DNA of 64,000 bases, from NCBI GenBank assembly GCA_964623495.1, contig CAZUTV010000002.1:18789-82788 (forward strand). Direction: 5' to 3'. The DNA is from Candidatus Woesearchaeota archaeon (lineage in GTDB: Archaea > Nanobdellota > Nanobdellia > Pacearchaeales > GW2011-AR1). Each line of letters opens with the position of its first letter. The stretch's first letter is position 1. The position numbers and the translations under genes were made by a program. This document shows positions 2,882 to 10,649 of the stretch, piece by piece. Under the pieces are notes generated by a model. It made no database searches and was not told the DNA's origin. It was given only the letters and a program-made list of their open reading frames with translations.

Positions 2882-3127
2882 ATGATAATTGAAGCATTAA
2901 TCCTTGCATGTATAGCCTGGTTTTTTGTAGCTTCTAGCTTATTTTTTAAGGTTTATTGGAAAGAGTGTGTTAAAACAAAAGTGAAGAAGATGAGTATGGG
3001 ATTTGGATCACTGCCTTATTTTTTAATGGTAAAGCAGGATAGGGGACTGAGTGTATGGGTTATGCAAGCATGGACAGCATTTGTTTTTCTATTATTCTTG
3101 ATTATTGTGAGAACAATAAGTGTATAA
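2882..3127 (+). CDS. Small hydrophobic protein (two predicted TM helices), hypothetical
   Basis: 81-aa ORF with two hydrophobic stretches; unusually Trp/Cys/Phe-rich. It is flanked on both sides by copies of the palindromic motif. Coding status is uncertain. Confidence 0.3.
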   Translation: MIIEALILACIAWFFVASSLFFKVYWKECVKTKVKKMSMGFGSLPYFLMVKQDRGLSVWVMQAWTAFVFLLFLIIVRTISV

Positions 3128-3128
3128 T

Positions 3129-3154
3129 CGTGCACTTAGGTTAACTTAGTGAAC
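3129..3154. repeat. Copy 3 of the GTGCACTTAGGTTA motif (imperfect palindrome CACTTAGGTTAACTTAGTG)
   Basis: cgtgcacttaggttaacttagtgaac starts 1 nt after the stop of ORF 2882..3127. Its 14-nt core is identical to copy 2. Confidence 0.5.
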
Positions 3155-3159
3155 AAAAG

Positions 3160-3760
3160 ATAATGGCTCGTAGAGGATAGAAATTCTTATTAATGCCCCC
3201 CCATAGGAAGATTATGTCGGAAATAGATCTTGCTAAAAGAGCAACAATACAATTTAAAACGCCTTTAACTGCCAAAGAATTAGAGAGAGATTTTGGGGGG
3301 AATTGGTTGTGAACAAGATTGTGAAGTGGAGTATACCTGGATACAGAGAATTAGGATAGATCCAACAACAAGCACAACCCCTTTTAGGAGAACCAGTCTC
3401 CAAACAAGCCAAGGAGAATTTAGTTCGAGAGGTTCACGACTATTTGTCAGTCTGCCTTTCGATCTCCAAGTAGGATATATTCAAGACTCACAAGACCCGG
3501 ACGATAGCAGGTATACAAGCCTTAGGTTTTTCATGGCTCCAGGAACTAGCGAAAGAGAAGTGCCTGCACCACAACTAGAGTTCATTGATGCTGCGAGAGA
3601 CTATTTCTGCAGATCACACTATTGGAAAAAAGAAGACACTATTCCAGAAGATTCTGACCCATAAGCCATAACCCATGATCTAAGCGGGCTAAATCTCGGT
3701 TTAAACTCCAAAAGATGTGTCGTAAAGGATGTTTGAACCCATGTTTTTCAATTTTATCGG
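3160..3760. other. GC-enriched, non-coding-looking segment (candidate structured RNA or decayed foreign DNA)
   Basis: Visibly higher G+C than surrounding DNA. The only long ORF (3293..3664) encodes a T/S/R/P/D-rich product unlike the K/I/L/E-rich proteome here. The reverse strand is full of stops. No RNase P, SRP or tRNA signatures were recognised by eye. Confidence 0.25.
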
Positions 3761-3788
3761 CGGGAAAAATCCTTGATTGATGTAATCT

Positions 3789-4352
3789 TAAACAGGTGTT
3801 TGAAGATGGTTTTTTAGCCTTACTGGGTGTTTAGGGGTGTTTTTTGGTGTTTTAAACAGGTGTTTATCTGTTAAATTACCTCTTTAAACGGGTTTTTTGG
3901 GGTATTTTTTGAGTAAAAAGAAGATTTTCTATGTCTCTTAATTAATGTAATAAAAAGGAGGAAAACCCACCTTTGTCCTCGTAAAAACAAAAGGTTTTTA
4001 AATAAGGAATATTTAGAAGAATTATGTTTGGGTGGTTATTTGGAAAAAAAGAGGCAAAACGTGTCGAGGAAGACACTAAAAGAGGTTTTGAGGGAGTCAA
4101 AAAAGACATAACTGCCTTGACGGGGTGGATCAAACACCTTAATTCTGAGCTAACAATGCAAAAAAAAGAACTTGAAGACATAAAGGTTTTTTTGTCGTCG
4201 GTTCAAGAAGACGTTGAGGGTGTCAAAAACGTGATCTCAATAATAACAGAGGTTAAACCAAATAAGGTGTTTAAAACAACCAAACGGGTGTTTAAGAAAC
4301 AAACGGGTGTTTATCCTGTTCAAACAGGTGTTCAAACGGGTGTTCAAACACC
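3789..4352. repeat. Array of AAAC(A/G)GGTGTT(T/C) near-palindromic repeats (at least 9 copies), partly intergenic and partly inside ORF 4024..4647
   Basis: Intergenic copies lie at about 3789-3801, 3825-3832, 3834-3853, 3853-3865 and 3885-3898. In-ORF copies lie at 4264-4273, 4282-4293, 4300-4311, 4321-4332 and 4333-4352; the last three form a 12-nt tandem repeat GTTCAAAC(A/G)GGT encoding VQTGVQTGVQT. Confidence 0.6.
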
Positions 4353-4647
4353 AAATTTAAGCCAATTTTCAGTTACTGAAAGAGCTATTTTGTTAATACT
4401 ATTAAATACTGACATGAAATTAAGTTACGAAGATTTGGGGGCTATGCTCGGAAAAGAAAAATCAACTATTAGGGGGCAGATAAATAGCATAAGGCAAAAG
4501 GGAGAAAACTTGATTGAAGAGGTCATGGAAAAGAACGGGAAAAAGAGGGTGTTTGTGCCTGAAGAAATGAAAGAAAAAATACTAAAAAAATCGAAAGTGA
4601 GAGTTGAAAAGAGTAAAAAAGGGGAAAAATCTGGGGAAAACCTATAA
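4024..4647 (+). CDS. Coiled-coil / low-complexity repeat linker / C-terminal winged-helix DNA-binding protein (paralog of 4909..5625)
   Basis: 207 aa with three parts. The N-terminal ~60 aa are heptad-like (ITALTGWIKHLNSELTMQKKELEDIKVFLSSVQEDVEGVKNV). The linker contains TGVQTGVQT repeats. The C-terminal wHTH-like segment is SVTERAILLILLNTDMKLSYEDLGAMLGKEKSTIRGQINSIRQKGENLIEEV, followed by a basic tail. Confidence 0.6.
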   Translation: MFGWLFGKKEAKRVEEDTKRGFEGVKKDITALTGWIKHLNSELTMQKKELEDIKVFLSSVQEDVEGVKNVISIITEVKPNKVFKTTKRVFKKQTGVYPVQTGVQTGVQTPNLSQFSVTERAILLILLNTDMKLSYEDLGAMLGKEKSTIRGQINSIRQKGENLIEEVMEKNGKKRVFVPEEMKEKILKKSKVRVEKSKKGEKSGENL

Positions 4648-4682
4648 AAAATGAAATTTCGAGGTTTAAAAGAGGTAAAAAA

Positions 4683-4892
4683 GACAAAAGTGAGAGTTAA
4701 ATTCGGGTTTTTTTTGTAAAATTTGTTTGAAAAGGGGGCATAAAAACAAAAAGTGAGAAAAAATAAGGAATTCGGGGGAGGAATAAGAAAGAGAAAGAAA
4801 TAAATTTTAAGATTTTAGGGCTTAAAAGGCCAAAAATGAGGGAAATAGAGAAAAAATAAAAGAAGAACAAAGAGACAAAAGTAAAAATTCGG
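4683..4892. repeat. Purine-rich divergent intergenic region with three iteron-like copies of ACAAAAGT(G/A)A(G/A)A...AATTCGG
   Basis: Copies read gacaaaagtgagagttaaattcggg (4683-4707), aacaaaaagtgagaaaaaataaggaattcggggg (4745-4778) and gagacaaaagtaaaaattcgg (4872-4892). They sit between the divergent paralogs 4024..4647 (+) and 4909..5625 (-). Confidence 0.5.
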
Positions 4893-4908
4893 TTAAACGA
4901 AAAAACAC

Positions 4909-5625
4909 TTATAAATCTCTTAGTTGGATTAAAACCGATAGAGGCGCTATTTTTTTAAGGTTTTTTGAGATAGAAAGGTGAATTTGTTTGTTATTTACCT
5001 TTATTTTGGATATAGGGATGCCTTTATTTATAAGTTTCCCGACGTAATCCCTGATCGAGCTTTCTGTGAGGTTTAATCTTTGGGCCAATACCCGGTAATC
5101 TATTTCCTTGCCTTCCTCGTCAAGCTGATAGATCAGAGAAAACACCGCCCATTCCTGATCTGTGAGATTCTTGAATTTTAAGCGGATTTCTTTTTTTAGA
5201 GAATCTAAAGAATCTAGAATCTCTGCGGCGTCCTCAATGGGATTTTCTAACGATTTTTGGGGATTTTGGGTCTGTTGGTTTGTCTGTTGGTTTGTCTGTC
5301 TGTCTGTTGGAACCCCTTCATTTCCTATGGAGATCCCTTGTTTTTCGTCTTTTTGGGGCTTAAAAAGGAGATTATCTGCTGGAATAAAGGGCATGTTTGT
5401 GGATACTTTTTGAGGGTGTGTCGAAGAGCTATCTTGGACCGGGGGCAAAGCCAAGGGGGCGATTTCTTGAAATTTTTTAGAAACTTTCAAAAGACCTAGG
5501 GATTCTGTGACTTCTTTTAGCTTGCTGTTAATCTCTATCATACATTGGGTAATAGAGGTTAGGGCTTCTTTTAAAGAATCTATGTCTTGCTTCACTTTTT
5601 GGAATGCTTCTTTTATAGCGTCCAT
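4909..5625 (-). CDS. Coiled-coil / repeat linker / C-terminal winged-helix protein (paralog of 4024..4647)
   Basis: 238 aa. The N-terminal coiled coil reads MDAIKEAFQKVKQDIDSLKEALTSITQCMIEINSKLKEVTESL. The linker has QTNQQTNQQTQ, encoded by a 12-nt tandem repeat at 5268-5310. The C-terminal wHTH reads LTDQEWAVFSLIYQLDEEGKEIDYRVLAQRLNLTESSIRDYVGKLINKGI. Domain order is the same as in 4024..4647. Confidence 0.6.
   Translation of the reverse strand: MDAIKEAFQKVKQDIDSLKEALTSITQCMIEINSKLKEVTESLGLLKVSKKFQEIAPLALPPVQDSSSTHPQKVSTNMPFIPADNLLFKPQKDEKQGISIGNEGVPTDRQTNQQTNQQTQNPQKSLENPIEDAAEILDSLDSLKKEIRLKFKNLTDQEWAVFSLIYQLDEEGKEIDYRVLAQRLNLTESSIRDYVGKLINKGIPISKIKVNNKQIHLSISKNLKKIAPLSVLIQLRDL
5268..5310. 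repeat. Tandem 12-nt repeat (CAAACCAACAGA on the coding strand) inside ORF 4909..5625
   Basis: gtctgttggtttgtctgttggtttgtctgtctgtctgttgg; it encodes the QTNQQTNQQTQ linker. Confidence 0.6.
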
Positions 5626-5664
5626 AAAAAAAATATTTGAAGGAGGTATAAAAATTTTAAGGTG

Positions 5665-5943
5665 TTAAAGAAGATGGTTTTGTCTTTGCTTATAAAGGGT
5701 ATAGGTGTGGTCTGTTAGGGCCCACCTGGATCTTTTGGAATAAACAACCCCTTTTGGGCTTTTCTTAACCTCTAAAACAAAATTTTTCTTTTTTAAAGAG
5801 AGAAGGAGGGATTTCACAAATTCTTCATCCCTAGCAATCTCTTGGGCTATTGTAAAGGTAAATGCTGACTTAGGGGAAATAGAATAAAGGTAAGCAAGAA
5901 TTTGCTCTAAAATCTTGTCTCTTTTTTTGTCGGAAATCTTCAT
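5665..5943 (-). CDS. Small winged-helix (MarR/PadR-like) transcriptional regulator
   Basis: 92 aa; KILEQILAYLY...IAQEIARDEEFVKSLLLSLKKKNFVLEV...GVVYSKRSRWALT fits an HTH plus a beta-wing with a conserved Trp. Confidence 0.55.
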   Translation of the reverse strand: MKISDKKRDKILEQILAYLYSISPKSAFTFTIAQEIARDEEFVKSLLLSLKKKNFVLEVKKSPKGVVYSKRSRWALTDHTYTLYKQRQNHLL

Positions 5944-5984: not shown

Positions 5985-6395
5985 TTATTTGTCTTGCTTT
6001 TTAAATGTGGGCATTGGAATATGTAAAGGCAATCCCATATCCTCTTCTAATTGCAGGGCCTTCAGGCTTGATTTTTTTATAATTATGTTAAAGAGGGTAA
6101 TATTAAACTCTTCTGGAATCTTTTTATCTTTCCAGTTTTTTAAGACTTCTTTAGAAAGTTTAGGGTCCACTGCAAGAAGCAGGCTGCCGCTTATCTCCAG
6201 CTTTGCAAAACCCGGATCATAGGAGATAACAAAAGAGTATTTAATCCCTAAAAGTTCCTCTCTTAACTTAAAGACATCTGAATCAACGCTTTCAATTTCA
6301 AGAACATTGATCTGTGTGTTGATCTTAAGGTTTTCTGGCTTATTTGAAAGCTTTTCAACACTTATCCTATCAAAATTAAAACCAATTATTTTCAT
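5985..6395 (-). CDS. Hypothetical protein
   Basis: 136-aa ORF with a K/I/E-rich composition typical of this genome; no motif recognised. Confidence 0.45.
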   Translation of the reverse strand: MKIIGFNFDRISVEKLSNKPENLKINTQINVLEIESVDSDVFKLREELLGIKYSFVISYDPGFAKLEISGSLLLAVDPKLSKEVLKNWKDKKIPEEFNITLFNIIIKKSSLKALQLEEDMGLPLHIPMPTFKKQDK

Positions 6396-6505: not shown

Positions 6506-6766
6506 TTATATCAAATCCTCTTCAGAAACAATGATAAAGTCACCAATAGCGATTATGGCACTATAAGGCACAAGTAAGTCCCCGGAAGAAGTCTTTTCAA
6601 GGTTAAGGTTTCTGGTATATAAGGTTGAGTCGCGAATAACAAGGTTAATAAGCTCGCCAGAACGAGTTTCAAAGGTTATGTCCCTAACAAATCCAAGCCT
6701 TTTTCCCTCTTTTGTGACTATCATTTTACCGACAAGGGCATTGAATGGGTTTTTGTTTTCTTGCAT
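6506..6766 (-). CDS. PRC-barrel domain protein
   Basis: 86 aa; LVGKMIVTKEGKRLGFVRDITFETRSGELINLVI followed by LVPYSAIIAIGDFIIV matches the archaeal PRC-barrel pattern. Confidence 0.5.
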   Translation of the reverse strand: MQENKNPFNALVGKMIVTKEGKRLGFVRDITFETRSGELINLVIRDSTLYTRNLNLEKTSSGDLLVPYSAIIAIGDFIIVSEEDLI

Positions 6767-6879
6767 GGTAATTTTAGAGGTAATTCATTTATAAACTTTT
6801 CTGTAAATGTATATAGATTTAAGGAGATATAGGTCATAACACTAAGAGGTTAATAAGAAAATTTGAAAAGAGGGAAAAC

Positions 6880-7290
6880 ACACCCACCCCTTCTTTTCTT
6901 ATAGAAACCTTTATAAAGAAAAATTTAACTTTTTTATGTTTTTATTTTATTTTTATGATTTTCTATAGTATAGTATATATATTATTTATTTTTATTAAAA
7001 AATATAAAAGATATTGATTTATTTGAGCACATTAACTTATTTTAAAAATGATTTAATTAATTTAGAAGGTATTAAATAATTGGGAAAGGCAAAAAGAACT
7101 CCAGCTAAACCAAAATAAGCTTTTCCACTAGAAATTTAGGTGTTTTTCTTTTTGAGTGGTTATGATACTTTAAATAAACCCCCCTTTATTTTTCGTTAAT
7201 AATTTTCCAAAGGAAAAGTTTTCCATCGGAAATAATAGTGTGGGTAATGGGCTTTTTATAAGGCTTTCACACCAAAATTTTTAAAGGGGT
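6880..7290. promoter_or_regulatory. Predicted chromosomal replication origin (oriC): AT-rich unwinding region plus three ORB-like elements upstream of orc1/cdc6
   Basis: An extremely AT-rich tract lies at about 6900-7070. Three ORB-like elements of form TTCCA-N3-GGAAA follow: TTCCACTAGAAA (7123-7134), TTCCAAAGGAAA (7205-7216) and TTCCATCGGAAA (7221-7232). The last is followed by a G-rich GTGTGGGTAATGGG. cdc6 starts at 7300. Confidence 0.6.
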
Positions 7291-7299
7291 TGAAATAAG

Positions 7300-8550
7300 A
7301 TGAAAAAGGATATAGATCATATTTTTGATTCTTTTGATAAGGAATCTCTGTTTAGAGACAAATCCCTATTACAGATTAACCATATTCCTAGCGAGATAGT
7401 TCATAGAGACGATCAAATTAAACAAATTGCGTCTATACTTGCTCCTGTTTTAAGAGGGGAGAAAACAAGCAATTTATTCCTTTATGGCAACACCGGTACA
7501 GGAAAGACCCTTTCTGTTCTATTTGTCAAAGATCATTTAATTAAAAGAGCGGATAAGAACGACGTTAAACTTAAAATAGAATATCTTAACTGCAAACTTA
7601 AGAAGGTTTCTGATACAGAGTACAGGATTCTTGCAGAGCTTATTAAGAAGTTGGGAAGTGAGGTGCCTCAAACAGGGCTGCCAACAGAAGCGGTTTATAG
7701 TAAATTTATTGATGTTGTTGATAAAGATAAACAGCTTGTTGTGCTTATTTTAGATGAGATAGACCAGGCCGTGAAGAAGATCTCGAGTGATTTCCTTTAC
7801 AATTTAACAAGATTAAATTCAGAACTCTCTAAATCTCAAATCTGTCTTGTTGGAATAAGCAACGATTTAACGTTTTTAGAGGAGCTTGATCCAAGGGTGA
7901 AGAGTTCGCTTTCAGAGGAAGAGATAGTCTTTTCCCCCTATAATGCACTCCAACTTCAAGACATCTTAACAAAGAGGGCCGAGAAAGCCTTTAAAGAGGG
8001 GGTTGTACAGCAGGGCGTTATTGCCAAATGTGCGGCTTATGCTGCCAGAGAGCATGGAGATGCGAGAAGAGCATTGGATCTGCTGAGGATAGCAGGAGAA
8101 CTGGCTGAGAGAGAGACTTCTAAAAAAATAACTTTAAAGAATATTGATGACGCCAATCAAAAAATTGAAAGAGATAAGATCTTAGAATCTATAAAAATTC
8201 AGCCCAAACAATTTCAGCTTGTTTTATACGCGATCATTAAACTTCAAGAAGCAAGAAAAAAAGGTGGGGGTGGGCAGAAGACCCTTAATTCTGGGACGAA
8301 AGGAGAGCCCATTTTTACTGGCGATGTTTTTGATTCATACCAGCAGTTATGCCTGCAGAACAAGTTAGAGGTTTTGACACAGAGAAGGGTTGGAGATATT
8401 TTGCAGGATTTTGATATGCTCGGAATAATCAGTGTGAGGGTGATTTCAAAAGGGAGAGGGGGAAGAATGAGGGAAATTAAACTAGCTATCTCTGATCCAA
8501 TTGTTGGCAAGGCAAAAGAGATCATTCAAGAATCATTAAATTACCATTAA
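7300..8550 (+). CDS. cdc6: Orc1/Cdc6 replication initiator (AAA+ ATPase with C-terminal winged helix)
   Basis: 416 aa. Walker A is LYGNTGTGKT, Walker B is LILDEID, sensor and wH regions are present, and the gene sits beside ORB elements. Confidence 0.92.
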   Translation: MKKDIDHIFDSFDKESLFRDKSLLQINHIPSEIVHRDDQIKQIASILAPVLRGEKTSNLFLYGNTGTGKTLSVLFVKDHLIKRADKNDVKLKIEYLNCKLKKVSDTEYRILAELIKKLGSEVPQTGLPTEAVYSKFIDVVDKDKQLVVLILDEIDQAVKKISSDFLYNLTRLNSELSKSQICLVGISNDLTFLEELDPRVKSSLSEEEIVFSPYNALQLQDILTKRAEKAFKEGVVQQGVIAKCAAYAAREHGDARRALDLLRIAGELAERETSKKITLKNIDDANQKIERDKILESIKIQPKQFQLVLYAIIKLQEARKKGGGGQKTLNSGTKGEPIFTGDVFDSYQQLCLQNKLEVLTQRRVGDILQDFDMLGIISVRVISKGRGGRMREIKLAISDPIVGKAKEIIQESLNYH

Positions 8551-9104: not shown

Positions 9105-10649
9105 ATGGAATCAAAAGAGATATTGAAATTTCTGATGCAGCAAGGTTTGTTAGTGGATAAAGAACTCCTAAAGATCTTTAGTGATGAAGAAGATCTTGAT
9201 TCTGTTAAACTTATTGTTGAAAAACTTAAAAATTCTACACACCAAAAGATAATCACCAAAGAGGTTTTAGAAAGAAACAAAGATCAGGTGGGAGTTATAC
9301 TCTCTTCATTACCCCAAGAAAATCAGGAAAAGCTAGAAAGTTTGAAAATCAAGCTTGGACTGACTTTGGAGATTTCCAAGGAAGTCATTTTAAAGAAAGA
9401 GGAAGAAAAGCCAATTTTGAATGAGGGTTCTGTGAGAGTCCAGGCTATGAATTATCCTTTAGGGAAGAAGTTTGAGGTCAAAGACTTTGTGGCTTATTTT
9501 AGGAATCGTTTTGCAGAAATTAGGGGGGTTTTGCAAGATCATTCTGTGTTGGACAATTTAGTTTCTATAAACAAGATTTCCGGTAACAGACAAGGAATTT
9601 CTGTTATTGGGTTAGTTTATGCTAAGGCAGTCACAAAAAACCAGAACATAATTTTTGAGATAGAAGATCTAACTGGAAAGATAAAGGTGTTGGTGAATAA
9701 GAGCAAAGAGGAGTTGCATAAGAAGGCTTTAGAGATTCCTCTTGATGCAGTTGTTGGATTTAAGTGTGCTGGAAATCGGGAAATACTTTTTGTTAATGAT
9801 ATTGTTTTTCCGGAGGCTGTTTTGCTTGAAAGAAAGAAGTCCCCTGTTGAAGAATGTGCAATTTTTATTAGTGATGTGCACATGGGGAGCAAGAACTTTA
9901 TGCGCGATGGATTTATGAGGCTTATGGAGTACCTAAATAATCACCCAGAATCCAAGAAGATAAAATATCTTTTTATTGTGGGAGATCTGATTACCGGGGT
10001 TGGAAATTATCCCGATCAGGAGAAAGATCTCGCAATTGTCAATTTAGAAGATCAATATACTTCTGCTGCAGAGCTTCTTGGAAAAATCCGAAAAGATATC
10101 AAAATTATCATCTCCCCCGGAAATCATGAAGGAGTTAGGTTAATGGAACCACAACCTTTATTTGATGAGAAATATGCTTGGGCACTGTATGACCTTGAAA
10201 ATGTGTTGCTTGTAGGGAATCCCGCAATAGTGAATATAGGTGCTGTTCCGGGGTTTAATGGATTTAATGTTTTACTTTACCATGGATTTTCGTATCCTTT
10301 CTTTGCAGATAGTGTTTCGAGGCTTAAAGAAGAGAAGGCAATGAACTCTCCCGAAAAAATAATGACTTATTTGTTAAAATTTAGGCATCTTGCCCCAACT
10401 CACGGCAGCGTGCAATATTTTCCTGGAGAAACCGACTGCCACTTTATTAGAGACATTCCAGATATCTTTGTTTCTGGGCATACACACAAGAGCGCAGTGA
10501 CTTACTATAATAATGTCCTGGTTATCTCTGGATCTTCTTGGGAAACCTTGACCCCTTATCAAGAAAAGTTTGGGAATACCCCAGACCATTGTAAAGTTCC
10601 TTTAATAAATTTGAAGACGCGCGAGGTGAAAATACTTGATTTTGAGTAA
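9105..10649 (+). CDS. DNA polymerase II (PolD) small subunit DP1 (Mre11-like phosphoesterase/exonuclease subunit)
   Basis: 514 aa. The calcineurin-like metallophosphatase motifs are DVHMG, FIVGDLITGVG, SPGNHEG and SGHTHK; there is an N-terminal OB-like region. Confidence 0.9.
   Translation: MESKEILKFLMQQGLLVDKELLKIFSDEEDLDSVKLIVEKLKNSTHQKIITKEVLERNKDQVGVILSSLPQENQEKLESLKIKLGLTLEISKEVILKKEEEKPILNEGSVRVQAMNYPLGKKFEVKDFVAYFRNRFAEIRGVLQDHSVLDNLVSINKISGNRQGISVIGLVYAKAVTKNQNIIFEIEDLTGKIKVLVNKSKEELHKKALEIPLDAVVGFKCAGNREILFVNDIVFPEAVLLERKKSPVEECAIFISDVHMGSKNFMRDGFMRLMEYLNNHPESKKIKYLFIVGDLITGVGNYPDQEKDLAIVNLEDQYTSAAELLGKIRKDIKIIISPGNHEGVRLMEPQPLFDEKYAWALYDLENVLLVGNPAIVNIGAVPGFNGFNVLLYHGFSYPFFADSVSRLKEEKAMNSPEKIMTYLLKFRHLAPTHGSVQYFPGETDCHFIRDIPDIFVSGHTHKSAVTYYNNVLVISGSSWETLTPYQEKFGNTPDHCKVPLINLKTREVKILDFE

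Follow-up and report, generated by a model that had tools for sequence, protein, structure and literature searches.

A putative origin-linked regulatory node in a DPANN archaeon, whose protein linkers may be translated DNA cis-elements

How can a protein segment that is predicted to be disordered stay invariant in sequence? The question is raised by two neighbouring genes, here called A207 and B238, in a 64,000-nucleotide stretch of a Candidatus Woesearchaeota archaeon genome (assembly GCA_964623495.1, contig CAZUTV010000002.1, positions 18,789 to 82,788; this whole stretch is referred to as the window). The original prediction, made from these letters alone, described each gene product as an N-terminal coiled coil and a C-terminal winged helix joined by a low-complexity linker. 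ORF calling in the window confirmed both open reading frames (ORFs), A207 at 4024-4647 (+, 207 aa) and B238 at 4909-5625 (-, 238 aa). We propose that the central segments of the two proteins are DNA cis-elements which happen to be translated, and that the genes form a regulatory node linked to the replication origin; on the sequence evidence set out below we hold the chances for and against this proposal to be about equal. To our knowledge, replication control in DPANN archaea is essentially unstudied, and a literature search found no paper on DPANN origins or on the protein family of A207 and B238. The two genes are laid out as follows.

4024..4647, + strand: A207 gene; N-terminal helix (residues 3-77, 4030-4254), central segment, winged helix (residues ~112-180, 4357-4563) and lysine-rich tail
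4909..5625, - strand: B238 gene; N-terminal helix (residues 2-51, 5473-5622), central segment, and helical and winged-helix C-terminal domain (residues 129-238, 4912-5241)

What does the central segment of B238 encode, and what is encoded by the DNA itself? The sequence of codons 99-115 is TTCCAnnGGAAATgaaGGGGT: first a complete archaeal origin recognition box (ORB), then an (ACAR)n tract. A putative promoter precedes the gene.

5312..5331, - strand: ORB TCCATAGGAAATGAAGGGGT, in frame over codons S99-V105 (TCC ATA GGA AAT GAA GGG GTT)
5269..5308, - strand: (ACAG/ACAA/ACCA)n tetranucleotide tract directly after the G-string of the ORB, translated as TDRQTNQQTNQQT
5647..5654, - strand: TATA-like box of the putative B238 promoter, 22-29 nt before the ATG; TTTTTATA stands at the same position in most loci

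The box, with its dyad core TCCA-N2-GGAAA (a mini-ORB), has no mismatch to TCCANNGGAAANNNNGGGG, and the G-string GGGG(T) follows 4 nt after GGAAA, as it does in the published euryarchaeal ORB consensus (GTTCCAGTGGAAAC-AAA----GGGGG; PMC1868953) once alignment gaps are removed. Over 39 related loci the sense-strand consensus is TTTCCAnnGGAAATgaaGGGGTTCC followed by (ACAG/ACAA/ACCA)n, with 0-1 mismatch in the ORB of every locus. The box presumably also closely resembles ORB4 of Aeropyrum pernix. With up to two mismatches allowed, the ORB pattern matches four times in the 64 kb, and the sole perfect match is the copy within B238 (5313, -). This copy stands in the same frame in all B238 homologues examined. 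A composite pattern, GGAAA-N4-GGGGTTCCAACAGACA, was found on at least 120 metagenome contigs, and every listed match lies inside a B238 homologue and on its sense strand. An exhaustive profile search gathered the B238 family into 893 clusters at 50% identity; among the best 150 of these, 134 representatives encode SxG[NS]xG[VAIL], and the 12 exceptions inspected differ from this only slightly, most of them reading S-x-R-N, possibly the translation of the TCCAnnAGAAA dyad type that occurs at oriC. Two ORBs, in tandem or inverted, are present in B238 in about one locus in four. The tract, 28-40 nt long, is conserved in most of 153 loci. By its letters the B238 element is indistinguishable from an ORB, and we predict it to be an Orc1/Cdc6 site.

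Is it the peptide or the DNA that is being conserved? The central peptide GISTGNEGVPTDRQTnQQT is invariant, yet predicted to be disordered. In codon alignments of the 39 loci, synonymous entropy (the mean over 4- and 6-fold degenerate codons) is 0.15 bits for residues 97-116 and 1.88 bits in the C-terminal domain. Several of the fixed codons are non-preferred ones, namely TCC (39/39), GGG (38/39), GAC (59/60, where GAT is preferred elsewhere) and mostly CAG, and the tract uses ACA at 129 of 140 positions. These alignments attribute the invariance of the peptide to constraint at the nucleotide level. Could selection on the peptide alone produce the same picture, with the QT-rich segments acting as short linear motifs and codon bias making the codons uniform? 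It would explain why the peptide motifs are invariant and why Q-T repeats occur in both proteins, but not why non-preferred codons are fixed or why the entropy differs about 10-fold within one gene. Moreover, the residues that do vary, 100 (T/I/N/S) and 103 (E/R/K/Q), coincide with unconstrained positions of the ORB: the codon of residue 100 lies over the dyad's central NN, and that of residue 103 over the spacer that precedes the G-string. The linkers, which had been taken for free low-complexity sequence, turn out to be the most constrained nucleotides of both genes. Tandem Repeats Finder did recover the different 12-nt tandem repeat that had been claimed for each of them (4317-4350 and 5270-5299), and with periods 4 and 12 both considered the B238 repeat is better described as a 4-nt one (5270-5307).

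The linker of A207 has a different content. Here the repeated peptide is read from an array of short palindromes, and the same motif stands upstream of the gene.

3789..3900, + strand: operator-like array upstream of the A207 promoter, with GGTGTTT / AAACAGGTGTTT motifs at 3791, 3826, 3836, 3846 and 3855
3980..4023, + strand: putative A207 promoter, BRE-like (B recognition element) CGTAAAAACAAAAG and TATA-like TTTTTAAATA (3995-4004), ~25 nt before the ATG
4262..4350, + strand: in-gene array of ~6 motifs, translated as VFKT..KRVFKKQTGVYPVQTGVQTGVQT

The core palindrome of the arrays is TGTTTAAACA or AACAGSTGTT. The window has six copies of the motif AACRGGTGTT where 0.2 would be expected; every one of them falls between 3791 and 4344, with two copies upstream of A207 and four inside it. 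Arrays of GGTGTTTAAACAG / GCTGTTTAAACAGGC are found within 100-300 nt upstream of the A207 promoter in nearly all of the 39 loci. The promoter itself, which archaeal promoter rules would place here, has the consensus cGtCGAAAAAaCAAAAgATTTTTAAA at the same position in related loci, and a TATA-like box only ~25 nt before the ATG suggests a leaderless A207 mRNA. How is an operator-like array accommodated in a reading frame? The in-gene array extends over ~90 nt and carries the same motif as the promoter arrays: the VQTG repeats of the protein are the translation of an AAACAG/CTGTT palindrome array and read GTT CAA ACA GGT, the nearest sense version of the promoter form GTT TAA ACA, which contains a stop codon. 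The 5' part of the array is read in another frame, as Q-V-F-K-T. Synonymous entropy falls to 0.53 bits over the array, compared with 1.2-1.5 elsewhere in the gene, and its codons are nearly uniform (ACA 123/132, GTT 114/143, CAA 132/147).

Two of the related loci, L013 and L060, whose A207 proteins are only 59% identical to each other, offer a view of what binds these arrays. Their recognition helix reads ST[IV]RNQINNI in place of STIRGQINxI, the promoter and in-gene arrays both read GTCAGCTGAC in place of AACAGCTGTT, and the peptide repeat becomes ADQT in place of VQTG. None of the 101 other loci shows this switch. By this co-variation the promoter and in-gene arrays are a single functional element of DNA, and A207 is indicated as the protein that binds them; we regard the co-variation as the strongest functional evidence that the sequences of this locus provide, and A207 as a candidate binder of AAACAGSTGTTT arrays. 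For B238, no co-variation of its helix with the tract or with the iterons of the spacer was evident. The change from VQTG to ADQT, made exactly where the promoter motif changes, also contradicts selection on the peptide only, an explanation that we now find scarcely credible.

Could the nucleotides be conserved for the sake of RNA or translation instead? mRNA structure, an embedded small RNA, or switching B238 on and off by slippage of the tract might each be at work. Several genomes have 8-11 perfect ACAG units, the C-terminal domain is out of frame exactly at the tract in 2 of ~126 contigs, and the A207 array region folds slightly better than shuffled sequence (z = -1.8). The B238 element gave no folding signal on either strand (z = +0.56 and -0.20), no C/D box motifs were found in it by eye, and neither Rfam, at gathering and E-value thresholds, nor ARAGORN reported an RNA gene in or near the locus. 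At least 97% of the contigs keep the frame; the exact ORB match would be left unexplained, as would the copies of the palindromes ahead of the promoter, a stretch that is probably untranscribed. An RNA-level or slippage role is thus quite improbable as the explanation of the constraint. The two out-of-frame contigs are L078 (~4161-4260) and L079 (minus, ~3413-3500): in both, the B238 homologue is frameshifted at or after (ACAR)n and its winged-helix domain continues in another frame, which could reflect slippage (phase variation) or an assembly error. The 64-kb window as a whole holds no tRNA gene detected by ARAGORN and no Rfam family at gathering score.

Some further features of the DNA around A207 are recorded here in their own right. 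Two overlapping AACAGCTGTT palindromes lie at 1581-1602, at the 3' end of a HAD-hydrolase gene (coding KQLFEQLL); they are the only A207-type copies in the window outside the A207 locus and may be due to chance. The motif GTGCACTWAGG(TTA) has three copies in the window (2248, 2797 and 3130, +), each in an intergenic gap, and is also found 250-330 nt upstream of A207 homologues in many other loci. An extra segment of ~570 nt with a raised GC content (3160-3730, GC 0.42-0.44) separates this motif from the A207 promoter arrays in the window, so that the motif stands ~890 nt from the A207 start as against 250-330 nt in many relatives. A 123-aa ORF within this segment (3293-3664) has no Pfam match; the segment has no Rfam match, and its folding (3125-3720) equals that of shuffled sequence (z = 0). 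Finally, most related loci have a conserved palindrome resembling TTTATCGACGATAAA ahead of the A207 arrays, and its window copy (3750-3768) is degenerate, TTTTATCGGCGGGAAAAA.

What kind of proteins carry these segments? AlphaFold2 models built from family alignments show the same three parts in both: a long helix at the N-terminus, a middle predicted with low confidence, and a C-terminal winged helix predicted confidently. The C-terminal domains share an H-H-H-strand-strand fold, with a pLDDT (predicted local distance difference test) of 85-95 in both proteins, and a Foldseek search of the PDB matched them to ST1889 and AbfR2, both Lrs14-like, and to MarR proteins (E 1.5e-4 to 5e-4). The predicted winged helix is therefore borne out for both proteins. 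Of the three-part build, the long N-terminal helix and the winged helix stand, and the linker gives way to a translated cis-element. Sequence searches were less telling: all Pfam and NCBIfam scores fall below the curated cut-offs (HTH_11 22.5 bits, cut-off 25; HTH_24 20.9, cut-off 21.9; Lrs14 15.7, cut-off 90), and searching the PDB by sequence returned nothing useful. Oligomerisation through the long helices, which the original prediction had also suggested, is an inference, if a probable one. Residues 1-10 of A207 (4024-4053) read MFGW[FL]F.KKE, hydrophobic and aromatic and then basic, and are nearly invariant across the family; they could be a membrane-contact or partner-binding motif.

Are A207 and B238 related to each other? 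The original prediction called them paralogues with alignable C-terminal domains. Pairwise BLASTP found no significant similarity, its best hit (E = 0.06) falling in the N-terminal helix and not in the C-terminal domains, and hhalign with shallow alignments matched them over 31 helix-turn-helix columns only. With diverse 39-sequence alignments, hhalign gave a probability of 96% and E = 4.5e-9 over 172 collinear columns spanning the N-terminal helix, the QT segment and the winged helix, a score which coiled-coil composition may partly inflate. The protein wH92, encoded upstream of B238, was considered as a third paralogue and rejected: against the A207 and B238 families its hhalign probability was <1%. 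Taking this negative control together with the significant collinear match, we accept a distant paralogy, visible at the level of profiles though not of single sequences. There are 2454 homologues of A207 (~70% identity) and 2284 of B238 (~53% identity), and for both they come from metagenome-assembled genomes labelled Pacearchaeota, Woesearchaeota or Nanoarchaeota. As part of the same evenly balanced proposal, we take the two to be distantly paralogous DNA-binding proteins specific to DPANN of the Pacearchaeota/Woesearchaeota type.

How are the genes arranged? A207 runs rightward and B238 leftward, so the pair is convergent (tail to tail) and not divergently transcribed as had been thought: the 3' ends face each other across the spacer. 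The 261-nt spacer (4648-4908) accordingly lies between stop codons, not promoters, and is not a shared promoter region. The tail-to-tail arrangement holds in 38 of 38 loci of GTDB genomes that have both genes and in 84 of 84 metagenome contigs, with spacers of 61-590 nt. Of the 38 genome loci in which both wH92 and B238 were identified, 37 have wH92 directly upstream of B238 on the same strand; in L038, the exception, it is inverted and 2.3 kb from B238. All related loci that allowed a check keep the unit wH92→B238→←A207, usually within a few kb of oriC and cdc6. The commonest order is DP2-DP1-Cdc6 on one strand, then oriC, then PRC-barrel-p136-wH92-B238 on the other strand, with A207 convergent; other lineages have 4-7 kb inserted or the cdc6 block inverted, and the wH92-B238-A207 unit stays intact. 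The genes between B238 and oriC in the window are these.

5665..5943, - strand: wH92, a small protein recognised by synteny and by weak EarA/HrcA-type winged-helix matches in Pfam
5985-6395: p136, a 136-aa ORF with no family match, adjoining the PRC-barrel gene
6506-6766: PRC-barrel gene (Pfam PRC, E = 1e-8)

For p136 there was nothing in Pfam or NCBIfam, and for wH92 only faint Pfam matches below threshold. The PRC-barrel gene and p136 were both found in 31 of 40 loci, nearly always adjacent, and in every locus where a cdc6 was located nearby they border the origin on its far side from cdc6. Other archaeal PRC-barrel proteins have been linked to cell division.

Two alternatives turn on this neighbourhood. 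Could the pair, along the lines of the original reading, be divergent paralogues around a shared iteron spacer, and belong to a mobile or plasmid-like element whose replication, partition or immunity they control? The locus does have paralogy, winged helices and iterons, and a resolvase gene lies ~4 kb to the left. The genes are convergent, however, no relatives were found among the viral contigs of IMG/VR or the plasmids of PLSDB, and in all relatives the unit is a fixed chromosomal one next to core replication genes. The resolvase lies outside the conserved neighbourhood and no recombinase is conserved next to the pair, whereas linkage to cdc6 and oriC is conserved. We conclude that the unit is chromosomal and lineage-specific and not a mobile-element module, and we give the older reading very little chance. 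The second alternative is that the unit is a device for chromosome segregation or organisation, in which A207 and B238 would bind a centromere or organise the nucleoid, polymerising on the repeats through their long helices, in the way of ParB-parS, TubR-tubC or ParR-parC. The direct and inverted repeat arrays, with spacings of 12 nt and 40-95 nt, would suit such a device, as would the helices themselves, the position near the origin and the nearby PRC-barrel gene, given the link of other such proteins to division. Against it, neither the genes called in L001 nor the conserved neighbourhood include a partition ATPase (ParA, SegA or TubZ-type NTPase), and the ORB would be left unexplained. Since the palindrome motif is limited to the A207 gene and its promoter, autoregulation fits better than segregation, which we consider improbable. 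With neither viral or plasmid relatives nor a conserved partition ATPase or recombinase beside the pair, the idea of a partition- or immunity-type control region finds no support.

If the spacer is not a promoter region, what does it hold? Its purine richness and its iterons, both noted before, are real and conserved.

4594..4601, + strand: first iteron AAAGTGAG, inside the 3' end of A207 and coding KVR of KKSKVRV
4648..4908, + strand: spacer, with iterons AAAAA-N4-AAAAGTGAGAGTTAA at 4687 and 4750, a degenerate copy at 4877, and ATTCGG at 4701, 4770 and 4887
4708-4716: T8 run, probably the A207 terminator

The spacer is 74% purine on the + strand, the sense strand of A207, and purine fractions of 0.58-0.76 are found in 38 of 39 spacers. 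Its repeats form a four-copy family of 28 nt, one copy being the one inside the A207 3' end; this copy, in the tail KKxKVRV, keeps its position and its GTG codon in 34 of 39 loci, and in some genomes the spacer iterons are plain duplicates of the segment coding for the tail. The conserved AAAAGTGAGAG iterons are 24-fold enriched: [AG]GTGAG occurs 77 times in the 10.7 kb of spacers from the 39 loci, with 3.2 expected, always in the sense orientation of A207. Spacer RNA showed no folding signal (z = +0.14). T-runs come soon after both stop codons, so the central spacer is probably little transcribed, which makes the iterons more likely to be DNA sites. A separate motif, CCGAATAAC (ATTCGG on the + strand of the window), stands just 3' of the B238 stop (4887-4895). 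In many loci (e.g. L002, L008, L013, L026, L033) it recurs ahead of wH92, where it is placed between TATA box and ATG. It thus brackets the wH92-B238 unit and may be another operator.

Where is the origin itself? A region of 20% GC upstream of cdc6, surrounded by the three other ORB matches in the 64 kb, is by its sequence a textbook oriC.

6767..7299: canonical oriC between the PRC-barrel gene and cdc6 (7300-8550), with an AT-rich core at ~6906-7100 (GC ~20%)
6886-6905, - strand: oriC ORB (pattern match at 6887), ending in GGGGTGGG
7124-7142, + strand: oriC ORB (pattern match at 7124), ending in AGGTGTTTTTCTTTTTGAG
7222-7240, + strand: oriC ORB (pattern match at 7222), ending in GTGTGGG

One of these boxes reads towards the PRC-barrel gene and the other two, ~98 nt apart, towards cdc6; the three types are also present in 26 related origins. 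At the 3' end the boxes are extended by sequence loosely similar to the motif of the A207 arrays (GGTGTTT) and that of the spacer (GTGAG).

Might the A207-B238 locus, then, be a replication origin as well, either a second oriC or an outlying part of the first, with the winged-helix proteins as accessory factors or initiators in the manner of WhiP? The B238 ORB is perfect and better than any at oriC, and the unit is linked to oriC and cdc6. In L004, L006, L009, L010 and L030 an inverted ORB lies just upstream of A207, so that two ORBs bracket the pair, and within B238 itself inverted pairs occur in some loci. With a GC of 0.19-0.37 the spacer is AT-rich, and the oriC ORBs have 3' extensions (GGTGTTT, GGGTGAG) similar to the motifs of the A207 arrays and the spacer, but the similarity covers only 5-7 nt. 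Against an origin, inward-facing ORBs with an AT-rich unwinding region between them are lacking, a single ORB is present in most loci, and where the tract has an ORB on either side the G-strings point towards it, the reverse of the arrangement at oriC. The B238 ORB is intragenic, 1.5 kb from oriC in the window and 5-8 kb in other loci, with no AT-rich element beside it. With a canonical oriC 1.5 kb away and the elements locked to the reading frame, an origin at this locus is unlikely.

How would the proposed node work? Oligomers of A207 would occupy the palindrome arrays, both those ahead of the A207 gene and the one within it, and repress the gene, possibly by looping ~500 bp of DNA or by blocking transcription. 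Orc1/Cdc6 would bind the ORB inside B238, and would in this way either tie the expression of B238 to the occupancy of the initiator or hold the initiator away from oriC; the spacer iterons would make up a third array of protein-binding sites. The proposal draws on nucleotide constraint, motif identity, synteny, protein fold and co-variation, from which we infer the binding partners and the effects. The autoregulated replication control of the original prediction survives in part: shared, co-varying arrays make autoregulation plausible, and there are an ORB in B238 and linkage to oriC and cdc6, but the spacer does not act as a shared promoter.

Several observations weigh against the node as we propose it. 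Most B238 genes have one ORB, a small number if initiator is to be titrated. Frame and orientation of the ORB are fixed with respect to B238 and not to oriC, which makes a structural role at the origin unlikely. The co-variation of A207 with its arrays represents a single evolutionary event, documented by two members of a sublineage that have diverged from each other. Part of the retrieval of the genome loci used a peptide pattern covering the QT repeat, which biases any statement that the tract is always present, though not the finding of the ORB. Finally, GC skew, extended 5 kb leftward with the help of L001, follows gene orientation and marks no origin.

A more ambitious version would have A207 and B238 as DPANN-specific partners of Orc1/Cdc6, which together would build a nucleoprotein complex on their own genes as a replication-control locus, its sites being the ORB and (ACAR)n element, the palindrome arrays and the GTGAG iterons. 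We put this forward tentatively, as a possibility with the balance clearly tilted against it. If true, the complex would, for example, titrate the initiator, time initiation or load a factor near the origin, and the 'disordered linkers' of A207 and B238 would be control DNA absorbed into coding sequence.

What follows for other genomes and other proteins? For one widespread DPANN clade, the locus provides a candidate map of replication control: an oriC with three ORB types and, nearby, a unit which holds the best ORB of the region along with operator-like arrays of its own. For protein analysis, a segment that appears disordered, of low complexity and invariant can be conserved for the DNA that encodes it; the passage from VQTG to ADQT when the DNA motif changes calls for caution in reading linker conservation as peptide function. 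The same co-variation pairs a recognition helix with a candidate DNA site.

How does all this compare with known systems? The regulators of the Lrs14/Sta1 type (AbfR2, ST1889) and MarR are the best structural matches of the C-terminal domains, with weak NCBIfam matches to Lrs14/Sta1 as well; A207 and B238 differ from them in adding an N-terminal helix of 50-75 residues and a linker that is a translated cis-element. Lrs14/MarR-type regulators typically bind their own promoter. In TubR-tubC and ParR-parC, short repeats spaced by about one helical turn are coated cooperatively by a small dimeric DNA-binding protein. The arrays described here are alike in form only, in their short repeats and similar spacing; there is no partner NTPase, and they stand in the regulator's own promoter and coding sequence. 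WhiP, mentioned in PMC4010727, is a winged-helix protein encoded next to Sulfolobus oriC3 and acting there. A207 and B238 are likewise winged-helix proteins encoded near an origin, but a canonical Orc1-type one at which they do not replace Orc1; no sequence relationship to WhiP was seen, though none was looked for. In Haloarcula hispanica, an ORB-rich region downstream of cdc6E negatively controls oriC2, probably by titrating Cdc6E (PMC3936714; PMC4010727). That region, oriC2D (PMC3936714), and datA of E. coli resemble the present case in having initiator boxes outside but near the origin that are proposed to hold the initiator; unlike it, they are intergenic and have many boxes (11 ORBs in oriC2D), where B238 has one or two inside an ORF.

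Among precedents, the cluster of ORBs that Thermococcales carry within dp1 comes nearest. Pyrococcus Cdc6/Orc1 binds this cluster of ORBs and mini-ORBs both in vivo and in vitro (Matsunaga et al. 2007, PMC1904270). There as here, Orc1/Cdc6 boxes lie inside a protein-coding gene near oriC and cdc6, in that case conserved across an order. The dp1 gene of the window (9105-10649) has no match to the ORB pattern. The host gene here is a lineage-specific winged-helix gene of DPANN, B238, and its box is a predicted one; instead of a cluster there are one or two full ORBs, locked in frame and continuous with an (ACAR)n tract. Neither an ORB within a gene nor a winged-helix protein that regulates itself is new in kind; the unusual part is regulatory DNA that would be translated as an invariant protein linker.

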